From an uncultured Candidatus Binatia bacterium (GTDB lineage: Bacteria; Desulfobacterota; Binatia; UBA9968; JAJDTQ01), in the NCBI GenBank assembly GCA_965242525.1, contig OZ251459.1, positions 3,072,001 to 3,136,000 on the forward strand: 64,000 nt of DNA. The letters are read 5' to 3'. Positions 7,472 through 14,010 of this stretch are shown here, in pieces. The position numbers and the translations under genes are program-made. Each line of letters opens with the position of its first letter. The first letter of the stretch is position 1. The notes below the pieces were generated by a model that did no database searches, was not told the origin of the DNA, and saw nothing but the letters and a program-made list of their open reading frames with translations.

Positions 7472-7522
7472 CGCCCGCCGTTTCCCATCCCGAAGGCCGA
7501 AGTCGAGCCGCGCCCGGGGCGG

Positions 7523-8779
7523 TCATCCGTCGCAGACTTCCGGGCGTTGCTCGATGTATTCGAGCAGGGCCTCTGCGGCCCATTGATGGCCGGCGGGGCT
7601 CCAGTGGCCGTCGTGGGGCCAGTGGGCGTCCGTGAGCTTGGCGCCCTGGCGGAGGATGTAGTCGGCTTGGTCGATGACGGGAATGCCGAGAGTCGCGGCC
7701 ATTTCGCTCATTCGCTCGAACAGGGAAGTTCCGGGGTTCTTCAGCGTGTGTGTCGCCAGGATGACCAGCGCAGCGCCGTCCCGGTCGGCGCGCCGCTGGA
7801 ACTGCTCCAGCGCGAAGCGGGTGTATTGCAGGGCGTCCTCGTAAAAGGGAGGCAGGTCCCTTCGAGAGAAGCCTCGCTCCATGTCGGCCAAACTGGCGGG
7901 CCGCCATCCTTCGAACATCGCAGCATAGCCGGGGTGCTGCCTCAGAACCTCCTGTTTCCGGAAGAACCGGTGTCGTGTGTCACGAGGAGGAACCAACGCC
8001 TTCTTCAACGCGTTCTTCTTGGCGGACAACCAGAGGGCAAACCGTGAATGGGCCATCGCCTCCCTTCCGGCGAGGGCGGTCCCCGATGGCTGGGGCCAGA
8101 AACCCTCTGGGAGCTGGTCCTGGGGGTAGGCCCATGCCAGTTCCAACTCCCCGTCCGGGCGCTTTCTCACCATGGGCTCCCAGCCCCATCCCCAGCTCCC
8201 TGCTGCCCACTTCAGTGCCCTCAGAAGCCGCGTGTTGTTGCCGAAATCATTGTCGACGAAGACCAGCACGAGCAGTTTGGGACGGAAGCGTCGGGCATAT
8301 TCGTCGTAGAACGGCAGTTGCTGGACTTGGCCGGTATTTCCCACCCCGAAGGCCGAGGTCGTGACTTCCATTCGGGGCAACCGGGCAGCGGCGAGTTCTT
8401 CGAGGCGAACCTGGACCTTGCGGTGGATGGGGACCTCCATCGCCTCCACGAAGGAGTCGCCGATGACGGAGACGTGGCAGGTTGCTGCGGCGCGTTCGGG
8501 GCTCGGGGGCTCCCGGTCGAGGAAGCCCAAGCTGTTGGTGCGGGAGACGTTCCAGAAGTCGAGTTCGTTGGTATGGCGTATCTCCGTGTTCGGCGGTCTG
8601 AGATAGCCTACGTTCGGGACGAACACCAAGGGGCGGCTCGGTCCCATGAACGGCACGGTCAGACGAAGCCAGGCTTCTCCGGCCAACCCCACCAGCGCGG
8701 CGCCTGCGACCAACAGAAGCACGTTCCATCCGATGAGGCGCAGCGCACGACGGAACCCGGCCATTGACGAAGATACCAC
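7523..8779 (-). CDS. Membrane-anchored SGNH/GDSL-family hydrolase or acyltransferase (AlgJ/AlgX-like), copy 1
   Basis: N-terminal TM helix, block I VIGDSF, G..N.G..QQ, VDND, and C-terminal D-x-H (HDGHWSPAGH). Confidence 0.8.
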   Translation of the reverse strand: MVSSSMAGFRRALRLIGWNVLLLVAGAALVGLAGEAWLRLTVPFMGPSRPLVFVPNVGYLRPPNTEIRHTNELDFWNVSRTNSLGFLDREPPSPERAAATCHVSVIGDSFVEAMEVPIHRKVQVRLEELAAARLPRMEVTTSAFGVGNTGQVQQLPFYDEYARRFRPKLLVLVFVDNDFGNNTRLLRALKWAAGSWGWGWEPMVRKRPDGELELAWAYPQDQLPEGFWPQPSGTALAGREAMAHSRFALWLSAKKNALKKALVPPRDTRHRFFRKQEVLRQHPGYAAMFEGWRPASLADMERGFSRRDLPPFYEDALQYTRFALEQFQRRADRDGAALVILATHTLKNPGTSLFERMSEMAATLGIPVIDQADYILRQGAKLTDAHWPHDGHWSPAGHQWAAEALLEYIEQRPEVCDG

Positions 8780-8814
8780 GGCGTCCCGCCTGCCTCAAGC
8801 CGCGCCCGAGGCGG

Positions 8815-11389: not shown

Positions 11390-12646
11390 TCACCCGTCGC
11401 AGACTTCCGGGCGTTGCTCGATGTATTCGAGCAGGGCCTCTGCGGCCCATTGATGGCCGGCGGGGCTCCAGTGGCCGTCGTGGGGCCAGTGAGCGTCCGT
11501 GAGCCTGGCGCTCTGGCGGAGGATGTAGTCGGCCTGGTCGATGACGGGAATGCCGAGAGTCGCGGCCATTTCGCTCATTCGCTCGAACAGGGGAGTTCCG
11601 GGGTTCTTCAGCGTGTATGTCGCCAGGATGACCAGCGCGGCGCCGTCCCGGTCGGCGCGCTGCCGGAACTGCTCCAGCGCGAAGCGGGTGTATTGCAGGG
11701 CGTCCTCGTAAAAGGGAGGCAGGTCCCTTCGAGAGAAGCCTCGCTCCATGTCGGCCAAACTGGTGGGCCGCCATCCTTCGAACATCGCAGCATAGCCGGG
11801 GTGCTGCCTCAGAACCTCCCGTTTCCGGAAGAACCGGTGTCGTGTGTCACGAGGAGGAACCAACGCCTTCTTCAACGCGTTCTTCTTGGCGGACAACCAG
11901 AGGGCAAACCGTGAATGGGCCATCGCCTCCCTTCCGGCGAGGGCGGTCCCCGATGGTTGAGGCCAGAAACCCTCTGGAATCTGGTCCTCGAGGAAAGCCC
12001 ATGCCAGTTCCAACTCCCCGTCCGGGCGTTTTCTCACCATGGGCTCCAAACCCCATCCCCAGCTCCATTTTGCCCACTGCAGTGCCCTCAGAAGCGGCGT
12101 GTTGTTGCCGAAATCATTGTCGACGAAGACCAGCACGAGCAGTTTGGGACGGAAGCGTCGGGCATATTCGTCGTAGAACGGCAGTTGCTGGACTTGGCCG
12201 GTATTTCCCACCCCGAAGGCCGAAGTCGTGACCTCCGTTCGGGGCAACCGGGCAGCGGCGAGTTCTTCGAGGCGAACATGGAGCTTGCGGTGGATGGGGA
12301 CCTCTCGCGCCTCCACGAAGGAGTCACCGATGACGGCGACGTGGCAGGTTGCTGCGGCGCGTTCGGGGCTCGGGGGTTCCCGGTCGAGGAAGCCCAGGCT
12401 GTTGGTGCGGGAGACGGTCCAGAAGTCGAGTTCGTTGGTATGGCGTATCTCCGTGTTCGGCGGCCTGAGATGGCCTACGTTCGGGACGAACACCAAGGGT
12501 GGACTCGATTTCATGAACGGCACGGTCAGACGAAGCCAGGCTTCTCCGGCCAACCCCACCAGCGCAGCGCCCGCGACCATGATGAGCGCATTCCATCCGA
12601 TGAGGCGCAGCGCACGACGGAACCCGGCCATTGACGAAGATACCAC
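11390..12646 (-). CDS. SGNH/GDSL-family hydrolase or acyltransferase, copy 4
   Basis: Same motifs (VIGDSF, VDND, HDGHWSPAGH). Confidence 0.8.
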   Translation of the reverse strand: MVSSSMAGFRRALRLIGWNALIMVAGAALVGLAGEAWLRLTVPFMKSSPPLVFVPNVGHLRPPNTEIRHTNELDFWTVSRTNSLGFLDREPPSPERAAATCHVAVIGDSFVEAREVPIHRKLHVRLEELAAARLPRTEVTTSAFGVGNTGQVQQLPFYDEYARRFRPKLLVLVFVDNDFGNNTPLLRALQWAKWSWGWGLEPMVRKRPDGELELAWAFLEDQIPEGFWPQPSGTALAGREAMAHSRFALWLSAKKNALKKALVPPRDTRHRFFRKREVLRQHPGYAAMFEGWRPTSLADMERGFSRRDLPPFYEDALQYTRFALEQFRQRADRDGAALVILATYTLKNPGTPLFERMSEMAATLGIPVIDQADYILRQSARLTDAHWPHDGHWSPAGHQWAAEALLEYIEQRPEVCDG

Positions 12647-12681
12647 GGCGTCCCGCCTGCCTCAAGCCGCGCCCGGGGCGG

Positions 12682-14010
12682 TCATCCGTCGCAGACTTCC
12701 GGGCGTTGCTCGATGTATTCGAGCAGGGCCTCTGCGGCCCATTGGTGGCCGGCGGGGCTCCAGTGGCCGTCGTGGGGCCAGTGGGCGTCCGTGAGCTTGG
12801 CGCCCTGGCGGAGGATGTAGTCGGCCTGGTCGATGACGGGAATGCCGAGAGTCGCGGCCATTTCGCTCATTCGCTCGAACAGGGGAGTTCCGGGGGTCTT
12901 CAGCGTGTGTGTCGCCAGGATGACCAGCGCAGCGCCGTCCCGGTCGGCGCGCTGCCGGAACTGCTCCAGCGCGAAGCGGGTGTATTGCAAGGCGTCCTCG
13001 TAAAAGGGAGGCAGGTCCCTTCGAGAGAAGCCTCCCACCACGTCGCCCCAACTGGTAGGCCGCCATCCTTCGAACATCGCAACATAGCCGGCAGCATAGC
13101 CGGGCTGCCGCATCAAAGCCTCCCGTTTCCGGGAGAACCGATGTGGCGCGTTGGAAGGAGGAGGAGGAAACAACGCCTTCTTCTTGGCGGACAACCAGAG
13201 GGCAAACCACGAATGGGCCATCGTCTTCCTTCCGGCGAGGGCGGTCCCCGATGGTTGGGGCCAGAAACCCTCTGGAATCTGGTCCTTGGGGAAAGCCCAT
13301 GCCAGTTCCAACTCCCCGTCCGGGCGCTTTCTCACCATGGGCTCCCAAGGACCTTTTCGGCCCCCTGGCAATAAACCCAACGATCTCAGAAGCGGCGTGT
13401 TGTTGCGGAAATCATTGTCGACGAAGACCAGCACGAGCAGTTTGGGACGGAGCCGCCGGGCATATTGGTCGTAGAACGGCAGTTGCTGGACTTGGCCGGT
13501 ATTTCCCATCCCGAAGGCCGAAGTCGTGACTTCCATGCGGGGCAACCGGGCAGTGGCGAGTTCTTCGAGGCGAACATGGAGCTTGTCCTCGTTGGGGACG
13601 TCCGGCGCCTCCACGAAGGAGTCGCCGATGACGGCGACGTGGCAGGTTGCTGCGGCGCGTTCGGGGCTCGGGGGTTCACGGTCGAGGAAGCCCAGGCTGT
13701 TGGTGCGGGAGACGGTCCAGAAGTCGTGTCCGTTGGTATGGCGTACCTCCGTGTTCGGCGGTCTGAGATAGCCTGCGTTCGGGACGAACTCCAGGGGTTT
13801 GCTCGATTTCAGGAACGGCACGGTCAGGCGAAGCCAGGCTTCTCCGGCCAACCCCACCAGCGCGGCACCCGCGACCAACAGAAGCACGTTCCAGCCGATG
13901 AGGCGCAACGCACGGCGGAACCGGCTACCGGGGGGAGTTGCAAGTGTGCAGCCGCGGTCCGAAAGCGTCAGCGGCGCCGGTTCGTTCAGAGGTCCATCTT
14001 TGCTGACCAT
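12682..14010 (-). CDS. SGNH/GDSL-family hydrolase or acyltransferase, copy 5 (distinct N-terminus; start uncertain)
   Basis: Same motifs. The likely ATG at 14010 (MVSKDGPL...) overlaps the end of the upstream gene. Confidence 0.75.
   Translation of the reverse strand: MVSKDGPLNEPAPLTLSDRGCTLATPPGSRFRRALRLIGWNVLLLVAGAALVGLAGEAWLRLTVPFLKSSKPLEFVPNAGYLRPPNTEVRHTNGHDFWTVSRTNSLGFLDREPPSPERAAATCHVAVIGDSFVEAPDVPNEDKLHVRLEELATARLPRMEVTTSAFGMGNTGQVQQLPFYDQYARRLRPKLLVLVFVDNDFRNNTPLLRSLGLLPGGRKGPWEPMVRKRPDGELELAWAFPKDQIPEGFWPQPSGTALAGRKTMAHSWFALWLSAKKKALFPPPPSNAPHRFSRKREALMRQPGYAAGYVAMFEGWRPTSWGDVVGGFSRRDLPPFYEDALQYTRFALEQFRQRADRDGAALVILATHTLKTPGTPLFERMSEMAATLGIPVIDQADYILRQGAKLTDAHWPHDGHWSPAGHQWAAEALLEYIEQRPEVCDG

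Follow-up and report, generated by a model that had tools for sequence, protein, structure and literature searches.

A patchwork tandem array of five SGNH-fold paralogues in an uncultured Candidatus Binatia bacterium

Background

Enzymes of the SGNH/GDSL superfamily (Lipase_GDSL_2, PF13472), among them E. coli TesA, Axe2 and CgnD, carry the Ser of a G-D-S motif in Block I, a Gly in Block II, an Asn in Block III and a C-terminal Asp and His that are usually spaced as D-x-x-H. Outside the cytoplasm the fold occurs in the peptidoglycan O-acetyl enzymes PatB and Ape and in the SGNH domain of OatA. The polysaccharide O-acetyltransferases AlgX and AlgJ (ALGX, PF16822) also have an extracytoplasmic site and contain a D-x-H-W motif, their Asp and His preceding the Ser. 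Segmental exchange among clustered homologous copies takes place in Neisseria pilE/pilS and Borrelia vlsE, systems of cassette-based antigenic variation in which one expression site is served by silent partial cassettes. Gene conversion can both homogenise multigene families and turn them into patchworks; examples are bacterial paralogues under concerted evolution, chimaeric FLO alleles in yeast (PMC3512402) and repeats of M. tuberculosis (PMC12046097).

Here we describe a tandem array of five SGNH paralogues located within a 64,000-nt stretch of DNA (the window). The copies have exchanged short stretches and each is therefore a patchwork of the others. The mosaic process is well known and the array is a real and well-supported example of it, within an unnamed and uncharacterised enzyme family whose members occur in arrays of this kind across many unrelated bacteria.

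Results

The five paralogues lie on the minus strand and are numbered c1 to c5, corresponding to copies 1 to 5 of the original prediction. The most upstream copy is c5 (12682-14010), followed by c4 (11390-12646, 418 aa), c3 (10104-11354, 416 aa), c2 (8815-10068, 417 aa) and finally c1 (7523-8779, 418 aa from a GTG), whose sister copies are annotated in the database from an ATG five codons further in. As originally predicted all five frames are intact, being uninterrupted and co-oriented. The start of c5 was taken as the ATG at 14010, where 25 nt are shared with the 3′ end of the gene upstream; the frame is open to a GTG at 14091. On comparison with relatives P0004-P0006 and P0008, c5 keeps the family-typical N-terminus ..PPGSRFRRALR. 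Adjacent copies are joined by a 35-nt spacer, found on the minus strand at 8780-8814 and recurring at 10069-10103, 11355-11389 and 12647-12681. Three of the four spacers are identical, that between c3 and c2 differs at 3/35 positions, and the first 17 nt are also present 3′ of c1 (7506-7522). No significant RNA structure was found for the spacer (z +1.35). Pairwise nucleotide identity among the copies ranges from 87.2 to 95.1 %, with the longest identical run being 136 nt between any two copies and 39 nt across all five. Protein identity to c1 is 81 % for c2, 86 % for c3, 93 % for c4 and 83 % for c5; c4 is nearest to c1 (95.1 % at the nucleotide level) while c2 is overall nearest to c5 and c3. 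Neighbours of the array include gyrB, an MFS transporter and aro genes.

The original prediction that variable blocks assort independently across the copies was borne out for every block named. WNVLLL in the TM block is found in c1, c2 and c5 and WNALIM in c3 and c4; HTNELDFW in c1 and c4 and HTNGHD in c2 and c5, c3 carrying a third form, HTNGLDYW; (M/T)EVTT in c1, c4 and c5 and LDVTT in c2 and c3. The RSLG..LPG.RK.PW loop belongs to c2 and c5 and the Trp-rich loop to c1, c3 and c4, with c1 departing from the pattern as first written at one position (G for the middle W). ALKKALVPPRDT is restricted to c1 and c4, its place being taken by a Pro/Ser block in c2, c3 and c5, and HDGHWS is present in c1, c4 and c5 with HDYHWN in c2 and c3. 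Near relatives (P0004-P0007, 77-79 % identical) contain the same blocks in other combinations. Per-segment difference matrices show that the nearest neighbour of a copy switches along the gene: c3 resembles c4 in the TM block (2 differing sites, against 7 between c1 and c4), c1 and c4 in the Trp loop and c2 at the 3′ end. Over alignment columns 501-700 there are 8-13 differences within {c1,c3,c4}, 11 between c2 and c5 and 28-37 between the two groups, while {c1,c4,c5} differ by 4-5 at the 3′ end.

Ninety-eight informative sites are biallelic, and they divide among the splits (c1,c4) with 32, (c2,c5) with 21, (c2,c3) with 18, (c3,c4) with 10, (c4,c5) with 7, (c1,c3) with 5, (c1,c5) with 2 and (c1,c2), (c3,c5) and (c2,c4) with 1 each, conflicting splits being spatially clustered along the gene. 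The four-gamete test fails for 1979/4753 site pairs (Rmin 27). PHI, which like the mosaic painting was computed with our own implementation rather than a published program, was matched in 0/5000 permutations at windows of 50, 100 and 200 nt (z about -9.7). We compared these values with a null model of 100 recombination-free simulations in which sites evolved at autocorrelated rates along the best single tree. The observed fraction of incompatible pairs was 0.385 against a simulated mean of 0.107 (maximum 0.19), and no simulation gave a PHI z below -3.1, the observed value being -9.8, in agreement with the original observation that no single tree fits all blocks. A copying model in which each copy is painted as a mosaic of the other four gave 7-12 segments per copy of 14-463 nt, with c3 the most patchworked at 12 segments. 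On the splits, PHI, segment matrices and simulations, the patchwork can reasonably have come only from recombination between copies, whether by gene conversion or unequal crossover as was first proposed.

The recombination signal is repeated at seven further loci, drawn from several phyla, whose arrays number 4-9 near-full-length copies (PHI 0/1000 in six and 18/1000 in L019); tblastn counts that include fragments reach 11 copies, in L025. Among 80 family members the five copies of the window form one clade with support of 100, in favour of concerted evolution, and the family has been amplified independently in many phyla. As in other multigene families subject to gene conversion, paralogues are closer within than between genomes and short exchanged tracts produce conflicting local trees; this array differs from them in consisting of catalytically intact enzymes in strictly regular tandem and in recurring in several phyla.

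An AF2 model of c1 (pLDDT 90.1, pTM 0.89) has a helix at residues 4-41 and gave 61 Foldseek matches in the PDB at E<=1e-3, the matches listed being almost all SGNH/GDSL hydrolases or esterases, with CgnD the best (8a2n, E 4.3e-6). The residues of the SGNH blocks are retained, with S109, H392 and W393 present in 44/44 family members, G145 in 43, N177 in 42 and D390 in 41. Going by the model and residue conservation c1-c5 are SGNH-fold proteins, anchored in the membrane by the N-terminus and probably lying outside the cytoplasm, consistent with the periplasmic-type enzymes that were predicted. C101 and C416 are also invariant (44/44), which would fit a disulfide between them outside the cytoplasm. 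Compared with the minimal SGNH/GDSL fold the proteins are twice as big (~415 aa). Besides the N-terminal anchor they have a beta-rich stretch ahead of Block I, a hairpin and, between Blocks III and V, a helical cap some 90 residues long, and their Asp and His are spaced as D-x-H followed by an invariant Trp rather than D-x-x-H. Only c2 passes the Pfam cut-off for Lipase_GDSL_2 (36.7 vs 32.9 bits), the c1 match being weak, and all five copies fall below that for ALGX (19.6-23.2 vs 26.5 bits, residues 352-414). Neither the NCBIfam models nor a PDB sequence search gave a match to the paralogues.

Most of the variation sits in a loop at residues 183-200 and in the helical cap (219-310). The shuffled blocks are putative substrate-contact loops. 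That much of the variation adjoins the catalytic blocks, as first noted, was not borne out in linear sequence: 19/86 positions (22 %) within 10 of S109, G145, N177, D390 or H392 are variable against 111/409 (27 %) overall. Single hypervariable positions do lie beside catalytic residues (114, 146-148, 176, 180 and 391, with 9-14 residue types in 44 sequences). For the window's array, hotspot columns that were defined independently have a dN/dS of 1.12 and the remaining columns 0.53, and the value is >=1 in hotspot columns in 6/7 arrays. The estimates are from the Nei-Gojobori method, which takes no account of recombination and can give too high an omega where GC3 is high. Such values would fit relaxed constraint as well as diversifying selection, the latter being unproven. 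Within-array variability hotspots are shared across arrays (Spearman 0.13-0.63), for which ordinary loop tolerance could suffice.

Directly upstream of c5, and overlapping it, is a gene for a polytopic membrane protein of 692 aa (13986-16064, minus strand). A promoter-like site, TTGCCA-17-TATGAT (10/12), lies just upstream of its ATG at 16076-16104 on the minus strand; the consensus scan found 2 sites where 1.1 were expected and so offers weak evidence, and it detected no promoter- or terminator-like site from there to the end of c1. The 692-aa protein belongs to no Pfam or NCBIfam family. Its C-terminal ~110 aa correspond to the C-terminal extension of long-form (~550 aa) SGNH relatives, a shared domain recovered by tblastn and by BLASTP (38 % identity over 111 aa, E 2e-22), and in both L032 and L033 tblastn shows SGNH genes with a homologue of the membrane protein next to them. 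Language-model features match GT-C-like clusters at 0.98, a lead only as to a GT-C-like nature; hhalign against a PMT_2 protein returned a probability of 1.2 %, a PDB sequence search lent no support and the AF2 model was poor (pLDDT 47).

Discussion

We think it likely that the tandem array arose by unequal crossover followed by short-tract gene conversion of an anchored and probably extracytoplasmic SGNH serine esterase or acyltransferase. One founding duplication with a single junction would have been amplified by unequal crossover, since the four internal junctions share essentially one sequence, and because the closest pairs, c1-c4 and c2-c5, sit three units apart a multi-copy block may itself have been duplicated. 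Conversion tracts, some tens to a few hundred nucleotides in length, would then have been exchanged among the copies, leaving almost no nucleotide differences in the catalytic core and C-terminal helix, with two or three versions persisting for each variable loop and being reassorted, so that each gene came to be a different combination. The five genes presumably form one transcription unit with the gene for the polytopic membrane protein upstream. The 183-200 loop and the helical cap may tune substrate range, in which case the array would amount to a small repertoire of related enzymes directed at a glycan or lipid beyond the cytoplasmic membrane.

What such a repertoire acts on separates two further readings. 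Anchored exo-esterases, such as carbohydrate esterases or lipases, might deacylate substrates of environmental or host origin, with amplification serving dosage and breadth and the mosaic a by-product. We regard this as possible but doubtful. The fold matches include acetyl-xylan esterases, rhamnogalacturonan acetylesterase, further carbohydrate esterases (CE2, PbeAcXE), lipases and TesA; the independent amplification in many phyla favours it, as does the 92-96 % nucleotide identity of long-form copies across phyla, expected of a transferable niche-adaptive function, and arrays in other genomes are flanked by transporters and a TonB-dependent-type outer-membrane barrel. However no glycoside hydrolase or other catabolic genes were found beside the window's array, and a polytopic membrane protein sharing a domain with the family better fits a membrane-bound assembly or modification pathway. 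The original prediction instead had recombination shuffle the substrate-contact loops of O-acyl-modifying enzymes in the periplasm and so diversify surface glycan decoration. In this reading selection would favour the shuffling, the enzymes would be of the AlgX, PatB or OatA kind and the cell's own surface glycan would carry diverse O-acyl groups. The D-x-H-W motif and weak ALGX match over the C-terminal region, the hypervariable positions directly adjoining catalytic residues across the family, the dN/dS values in hotspot columns, the GT-C-like features of the upstream protein and the presence of PatB (7tlv, Foldseek TM 0.30/0.53, rank 27, E 3.2e-4) among the fold matches all point this way. 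Nevertheless we consider it unlikely. The ALGX scores are below cut-off in all five copies and, unlike in AlgX and AlgJ, the Ser precedes the Asp and His; the proteins are no closer to PatB, Ape or OatA than to the generic esterases and thioesterases that are their best fold matches. Among the scanned ORFs of the window there is no PatA/MBOAT or AT3 acyl-donor partner, no polysaccharide or peptidoglycan synthesis genes or other cell-wall context adjoin the array, variation shows no enrichment around the catalytic residues along the sequence, and an omega near 1 is equally given by relaxed constraint.

Two explanations of the patchwork itself are far less probable. Inside the repeat, reads that belong to different copies or to strain variants could have been misjoined, as identical runs of 48-136 nt between copies are enough to confuse short k-mers and each window cluster is seen on one contig only. 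Such an assembly chimera is very improbable given that the proteins are recorded on a chromosome-sized contig of 4,149,062 bp, that five intact frames are separated by regular 35-nt spacers, that seven further arrays, of which six come from records with the title 'chromosome', show the same signal, and that relatives on other contigs carry the same block variants in different combinations. Least credible of all is a programmed system of the pilE/pilS or vlsE type, in which one expressed gene is rewritten from silent donors. It shares with our array the short-tract, non-reciprocal-looking exchanges between clustered copies, but here no expression site is set apart from silent partial cassettes. 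Each of the five copies has its full length, an intact set of catalytic residues and the start context of the others, none is truncated or a promoterless cassette, and the variation takes two or three forms instead of being open-ended.

The GC3 of c1-c4, the copies scored (c5 was left out), is 0.76-0.79 and that of the membrane protein 0.82, compared with 0.93-0.95 for gyrB, gyrA and the MFS gene, and this lower composition may be counted as support for a foreign origin of the array and its upstream gene.

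Organisation of the tandem SGNH array

We identified five SGNH paralogues arranged head to tail on the minus strand, numbered from the most downstream copy, c1 (7523-8779, 418 aa), through c2 (8815-10068, 417 aa), c3 (10104-11354, 416 aa) and c4 (11390-12646, 418 aa) to the most upstream copy, c5 (12682-14010). The c5 frame is open as far as a GTG at 14091, its likely start being the ATG at 14010. Pairwise nucleotide identity among the copies is 87.2-95.1 %, and at the protein level c2, c3, c4 and c5 are 81 %, 86 %, 93 % and 83 % identical to c1 respectively. All five ORFs are uninterrupted, in agreement with the original prediction, and each of the variable blocks it had named was found in the copies to which it had been assigned, with two small corrections: in c3 the HTN block takes a third form, HTNGLDYW, and c1 deviates at one position from the pattern written for the Trp-rich loop. 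Tandem Repeats Finder reported just two 18-nt micro-repeats in the window, the 1.29-kb period of the array going unreported because the longest period searched was 500. The copies are separated by near-identical spacers of 35 nt each. No structured RNA element is present in the spacer, whose folding together with its flanks gave a z of +1.35 and was equalled or bettered by 184 of 200 shuffles, and an Rfam search of the whole window returned no matches.

The arrangement of the junctions carries information on how the array arose. The first 17 nt past the stop codon recur after every one of the five copies, c1 included, and the next ~40 nt, which encode the N-terminus M(V)SSSMAGF of c1-c4, are near-identical at the four internal junctions. 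The N-terminus of c5 (..PPGSRFRRALR) resembles those of relatives from elsewhere, namely the proteins P0004-P0006 and P0008. This reuse of one junction sequence four times points to one founding duplication with subsequent unequal crossover. The two closest pairs are c1-c4 and c2-c5, each spanning a distance of three units, which suggests that a multi-copy block was duplicated, and physically adjacent pairs are supported by 36 of 98 informative sites, which fits the trace expected from later short conversions between neighbours. The junction-type N-terminus is also carried by the relative P0007, and the array thus appears to be older than the split from P0007.

Recombination between the copies

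The 98 biallelic informative sites among c1-c5 support conflicting splits, (c1,c4) at 32 sites, (c2,c5) at 21, (c2,c3) at 18, (c3,c4) at 10, (c4,c5) at 7 and (c1,c3) at 5. The conflicting splits are clustered along the gene, with six (c3,c4) sites falling inside 11 nt of the TM block and a stretch of (c2,c3) sites at the 3′ end. Segment difference matrices likewise show that the nearest neighbour switches along the gene: in the TM block c3 and c4 differ at 2 sites while c1 and c4 differ at 7, over alignment columns 501-700 there are 8-13 differences within {c1,c3,c4}, 11 within {c2,c5} and 28-37 between the two groups, and over columns 1111-1300 the members of {c1,c4,c5} differ at 4-5 positions. 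The four-gamete test failed for 1,979 of 4,753 site pairs, giving an Rmin of 27. The PHI test that had been proposed as a check (our own implementation, windows of 50, 100 and 200 nt) was positive, with none of 5,000 permutations as low as the observed value and z between -8.2 and -9.7. The patchwork exceeds what chance would give, in line with the original claim that no single tree fits all blocks. As a control we simulated 100 data sets without recombination on the best single tree, using autocorrelated site rates as observed. The fraction of incompatible site pairs was 0.385 in the observed data against a simulated mean of 0.107 and maximum of 0.19, and the observed PHI z of -9.8 compares with a lowest simulated value of -3.1; 9 of the 100 simulations reached p ≤ 0.05. 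Painting under a copying model resolved each copy into 7-12 segments, 14-463 nt long, that match one or other of the remaining four copies; the number of segments depends on the parameters chosen.

The patchwork could be an artefact of assembly, a reading that is argued against on several grounds. The contig on which the window's own proteins are recorded measures 4,149,062 bp; identical runs reach at most 136 nt between two copies and 39 nt over all five; arrays related to c1-c5 in other records show the same behaviour; and the relatives P0004-P0007, which are 77-79 % identical and lie on other contigs, combine the same block variants differently. P0005 and P0006 are c2/c3/c5-like patchworks that include a new pairing, HDYHWS, and P0004 is 91.6 % identical to c5. 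Cassette-type variation of the pilE/pilS kind, with one expression site and silent truncated donors, is unlikely since all five ORFs are full-length and alike in junction and start context. A diversity-generating retroelement also seems unlikely, as whole blocks vary, each in two or three forms, and no reverse transcriptase was found among the window ORFs scanned with Pfam. The patchwork is real and statistically solid, and its mechanism is amplification combined with short-tract gene conversion. Gene conversion between tandem paralogues is a textbook process, so the patchwork alone is not new.

Fold and conserved motifs of the SGNH proteins

c1 was modelled with AlphaFold2 from an alignment of 44 family sequences (pLDDT 90.1, pTM 0.89). 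From the N-terminus, the model runs through Arg-rich residues into one long helix (residues 4-41), then a small beta segment and the alpha/beta core; these are followed by a loop of low confidence (181-200), a hairpin, a helical cap (~219-334) and the last two core strands. The model and its Foldseek matches show the flavodoxin-like alpha/beta/alpha fold of the SGNH superfamily. Foldseek returned 61 matches in the PDB at E ≤ 1e-3, of which those listed are almost all SGNH/GDSL hydrolases or esterases, including CgnD (8a2n, E 4.3e-6), a Bacteroides putative lipase, TesA and Axe2, with PatB at rank 27; the query, about twice the size of the proteins matched, limits the TM scores to modest values. 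A profile of the family gave no matches to PDB sequences at E ≤ 0.1. Against Pfam, c2 alone scored above the gathering score of 32.9 bits for PF13472 (Lipase_GDSL_2) with 36.7 bits, c4 (32.6), c3 (30.1), c1 (29.5) and c5 (28.4) falling just below it, and all five copies were below the 26.5 bits required for ALGX (PF16822) with 19.6-23.2 bits. NCBIfam gave no meaningful match to the SGNH proteins.

Block I, IGDSFVEA, is present in all five copies and supplies the G-D-S-x feature of SGNH enzymes. Among 44 family members G107 and S109 are conserved in 44 and D108 in 42, while the oxyanion-hole residues G145 of Block II and N177 of Block III (the N-D of VxNDF) are conserved in 43 and 42 respectively. 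D390 (41/44) and H392 (44/44) are spaced D-x-H and followed by W393; the canonical Block V spacing is D-x-x-H. Five residues, S109, H392, W393, C101 and C416, are invariant in all 44 sequences. The five window copies each retain S109, G145, N177, D390, H392, W393, C101 and C416, from which it is likely that all five are active. The anchor, the Arg-rich residues preceding it and the invariant Cys pair suggest that the enzyme domain lies outside the cytoplasm.

The D-x-H-W spacing of Asp and His in c1-c5 is shared with AlgX/AlgJ. In AlgX the order of Asp and His relative to Ser differs from that of ordinary SGNH enzymes, whereas in c1-c5, unlike AlgX, Ser precedes Asp and His as in ordinary SGNH enzymes. 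Pfam scans of 41 window ORFs revealed neither an MBOAT (AlgI-like) nor an AT3 partner. The role originally proposed, O-acyl decoration of a surface glycan with selection acting on the contact loops, is possible but hypothetical.

Distribution of variation and selection

Among the five copies 111 of 409 residues (10-418) vary, or 27 %, with hotspots in the loop at 183-200 (14 of 18 residues) and in the cap at 219-310 (37 of 92). The original claim placed much of this variation beside the catalytic blocks. Of the 86 residues no more than 10 positions away from one of the five catalytic residues, 19 vary (22 %), compared with 27 % overall, so the claimed adjacency finds no support in the linear sequence, where there is no enrichment. 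Across the family, hypervariable positions do occur beside catalytic residues, at 114, 146-148, 176, 180 and 391, with 9-14 residue types in 44 sequences, and close relatives carry G, Y, A, D, F or I between Asp and His.

Whole-gene pairwise dN/dS among c1-c5, calculated by the Nei-Gojobori method, which ignores recombination and codon bias, is 0.44-0.89 with dS of 0.08-0.16. To avoid circularity, the hotspot columns for a given array were taken from the diversity seen inside each of the other six. Omega for the window array was 1.12 in hotspot columns versus 0.53 elsewhere, and over the seven arrays it ranged from 0.84 to 1.45 in hotspot columns versus 0.27-0.74 elsewhere, a pattern compatible with relaxed constraint as well as with diversifying selection at a subset of sites. 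Hotspots are common to different arrays (Spearman 0.13-0.63), which ordinary loop tolerance would also explain.

A widespread and recurrently amplified family

We identified 152 confirmed stretches related to the SGNH proteins in a genome collection that does not include the window's own genome; the best 80 stretches were kept and represent 71 loci, the best of all being 57 % identical. Tandem arrays are present in many of these loci. The numbers of tblastn hits were 11 in the gammaproteobacterial locus L025 (fragments counted), 9 in L028 (Bryobacterales), 5 each in L005 (Dehalococcoidia) and L029 (Vicinamibacterales) and 4 each in L002, L006, L015 and L019. Outside the window, seven loci representing at least four phyla carry arrays of 4-9 near-full-length copies. 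In a tree of 80 near-full-length copies from 32 loci and the window, the five window copies form one clade with a support of 100, and the arrays of L025, L028 and L029 as well as nine Dehalococcoidia copies also form clades of their own. The copies of these arrays are thus more similar to their neighbours in the same genome than to relatives from other genomes, as in concerted evolution, and PHI was significant in all eight arrays tested, with 0 of 1,000 permutations in seven and 18 of 1,000 in L019.

In protein databases 2,123 SGNH relatives were found at E ≤ 1e-3 among 8,000 scored candidates, none of them named, and 289 clusters (50 % identity) at E ≤ 1e-30. The 120 relatives listed include at least ten on the 4,149,062-bp contig, three of which are the window's own, so the genome contains at least seven further dispersed paralogues. 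No name for the family was found in Pfam, NCBIfam or the source records, and targeted literature searches found no description of the family or its arrays, a broader search returning papers on gene conversion among paralogues.

Long-form relatives of ~550 aa share near-identical DNA between chromosomes titled as different phyla. Identity is 93.4 % over 2,015 nt between L006:9620-11628 and L010:9432-11445 (Nitrospirales and Gammaproteobacteria), 95.6 % over 1,575 nt between L014:10000-11573 and L015:12185-13758 (Pseudomonadales and Vicinamibacterales) and 91.8 % over 1,894 nt between L012:8007-9898 and L019:6009-7885 (Gammaproteobacteria and Candidatus Entotheonella). Long-form copies from different phyla are intermixed in the tree on very short branches, and these observations point to recent cross-phylum transfer of a long-form SGNH gene. 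The family lacks a name, is recurrently amplified and is apparently mobile, and the interest lies more in this family than in the patchwork.

Certain loci (L023, L031, L030 and L032:11308-11802) match the N-terminal half only (~residues 9-190), with 54-62 % identity, and many database proteins match in two stretches, the best at 8-190. This half comprises the anchor, the beta segment and Blocks I-III, and its identity exceeds that of full-length relatives. Either conservation is much stronger in the N-terminal half than in the cap, or that half is also paired with a different C-terminal half.

An adjoining family of polytopic membrane proteins

Directly upstream of c5, and overlapping its start, a gene on the minus strand (13986-16064) encodes a polytopic membrane protein of 692 aa. 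Its AlphaFold2 model is poor (pLDDT 47.1, pTM 0.39), with many predicted helices and a beta-rich C-terminal domain of ~110 aa containing two conserved cysteines (13986-14330, minus strand). This domain aligns over 111 aa with the C-terminal extension of the long-form SGNH relatives (38 % identity, E 2e-22), and it is also found at the C-termini of the L006, L010, L015, L019, L021 and other copies. The domain has no Pfam match, and an Atlas search by language-model features on the domain alone gave no usable match. Full-length homologues of the 692-aa protein adjoin SGNH genes in L032 and L033.

Atlas features place the 692-aa protein at 0.98 to RgtA-like and PMT_2 clusters of the GT-C glycosyltransferase type. 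Pfam and NCBIfam returned no match to the protein, its profile matched nothing meaningful among PDB sequences and hhalign against the PMT_2 neighbour of L001 gave a probability of 1.2 %, so assignment as a GT-C-type glycosyltransferase is a lead only. The L001 neighbour, from Longimicrobiales, is a 540-aa protein (12665-14284, minus strand) with a PMT_2 match at E 2.4e-8; it directly adjoins an SGNH pair and shows no detectable relationship to the 692-aa protein. The 692-aa protein has 1,372 relatives at E ≤ 1e-3 among 8,000 scored, a family without Pfam domain or name. At least 23 members (64-100 % identical, the 692-aa protein included) lie on the 4,149,062-bp contig among the 120 listed, and many more are present on two other chromosome-sized contigs of 4,008,427 and 4,060,957 bp.

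A joint reading, tentative and taken whole rather unlikely, is that an unnamed, horizontally mobile family of anchored extracytoplasmic SGNH enzymes has been repeatedly amplified into recombining tandem arrays by unrelated bacteria (Acidobacteriota, Chloroflexota, Gammaproteobacteria, Nitrospirota, Tectimicrobiota and Gemmatimonadota). The arrays would act as combinatorial generators of enzyme specificity, their partner being the massively expanded membrane-protein family (at least 23 paralogues on the same contig) to which they are linked through the shared C-terminal domain, and the two would together constitute an undescribed variable cell-envelope or substrate-modification system. Should the variants of the loop and cap alter substrate choice, the arrays would represent a natural experiment in which recombination builds enzyme repertoires, and would provide a handle on a trait evidently exchanged between co-occurring bacteria.

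Genomic context of the array

The array is flanked by gyrB/gyrA on one side and by an MFS transporter, aroQ, aroB and aroC block on the other, beyond which lie ATP synthase, parAB and rsmG/mnmG genes. GC3 is 0.76-0.79 in c1-c4 and 0.82 in the 692-aa gene, compared with 0.93-0.95 in gyrB, gyrA and the MFS gene and 0.82-0.95, mostly at least 0.89, over the flanking housekeeping genes (gyrA, gyrB, MFS, aro and ATP synthase). The lower GC3 suggests that the array and the 692-aa gene form an acquired island in an otherwise core region. As weak evidence on its transcription, a promoter-like site was found directly upstream of the 692-aa gene, and no promoter-like or terminator-like sites were found inside the array.

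Elsewhere in the window, a type I restriction-modification system on the minus strand (40065-49133) comprises an N6 methylase (40065-41555), a specificity subunit (42799-44415) and a restriction subunit (46104-49133), with a PIN-domain gene (44916-45404) inside the region. GC content at 42-46 kb is 0.58-0.61, below that of the surroundings. A cluster of the BatA, VWA, DUF58 and MoxR AAA-ATPase type is located at 51563-58406 on the minus strand.
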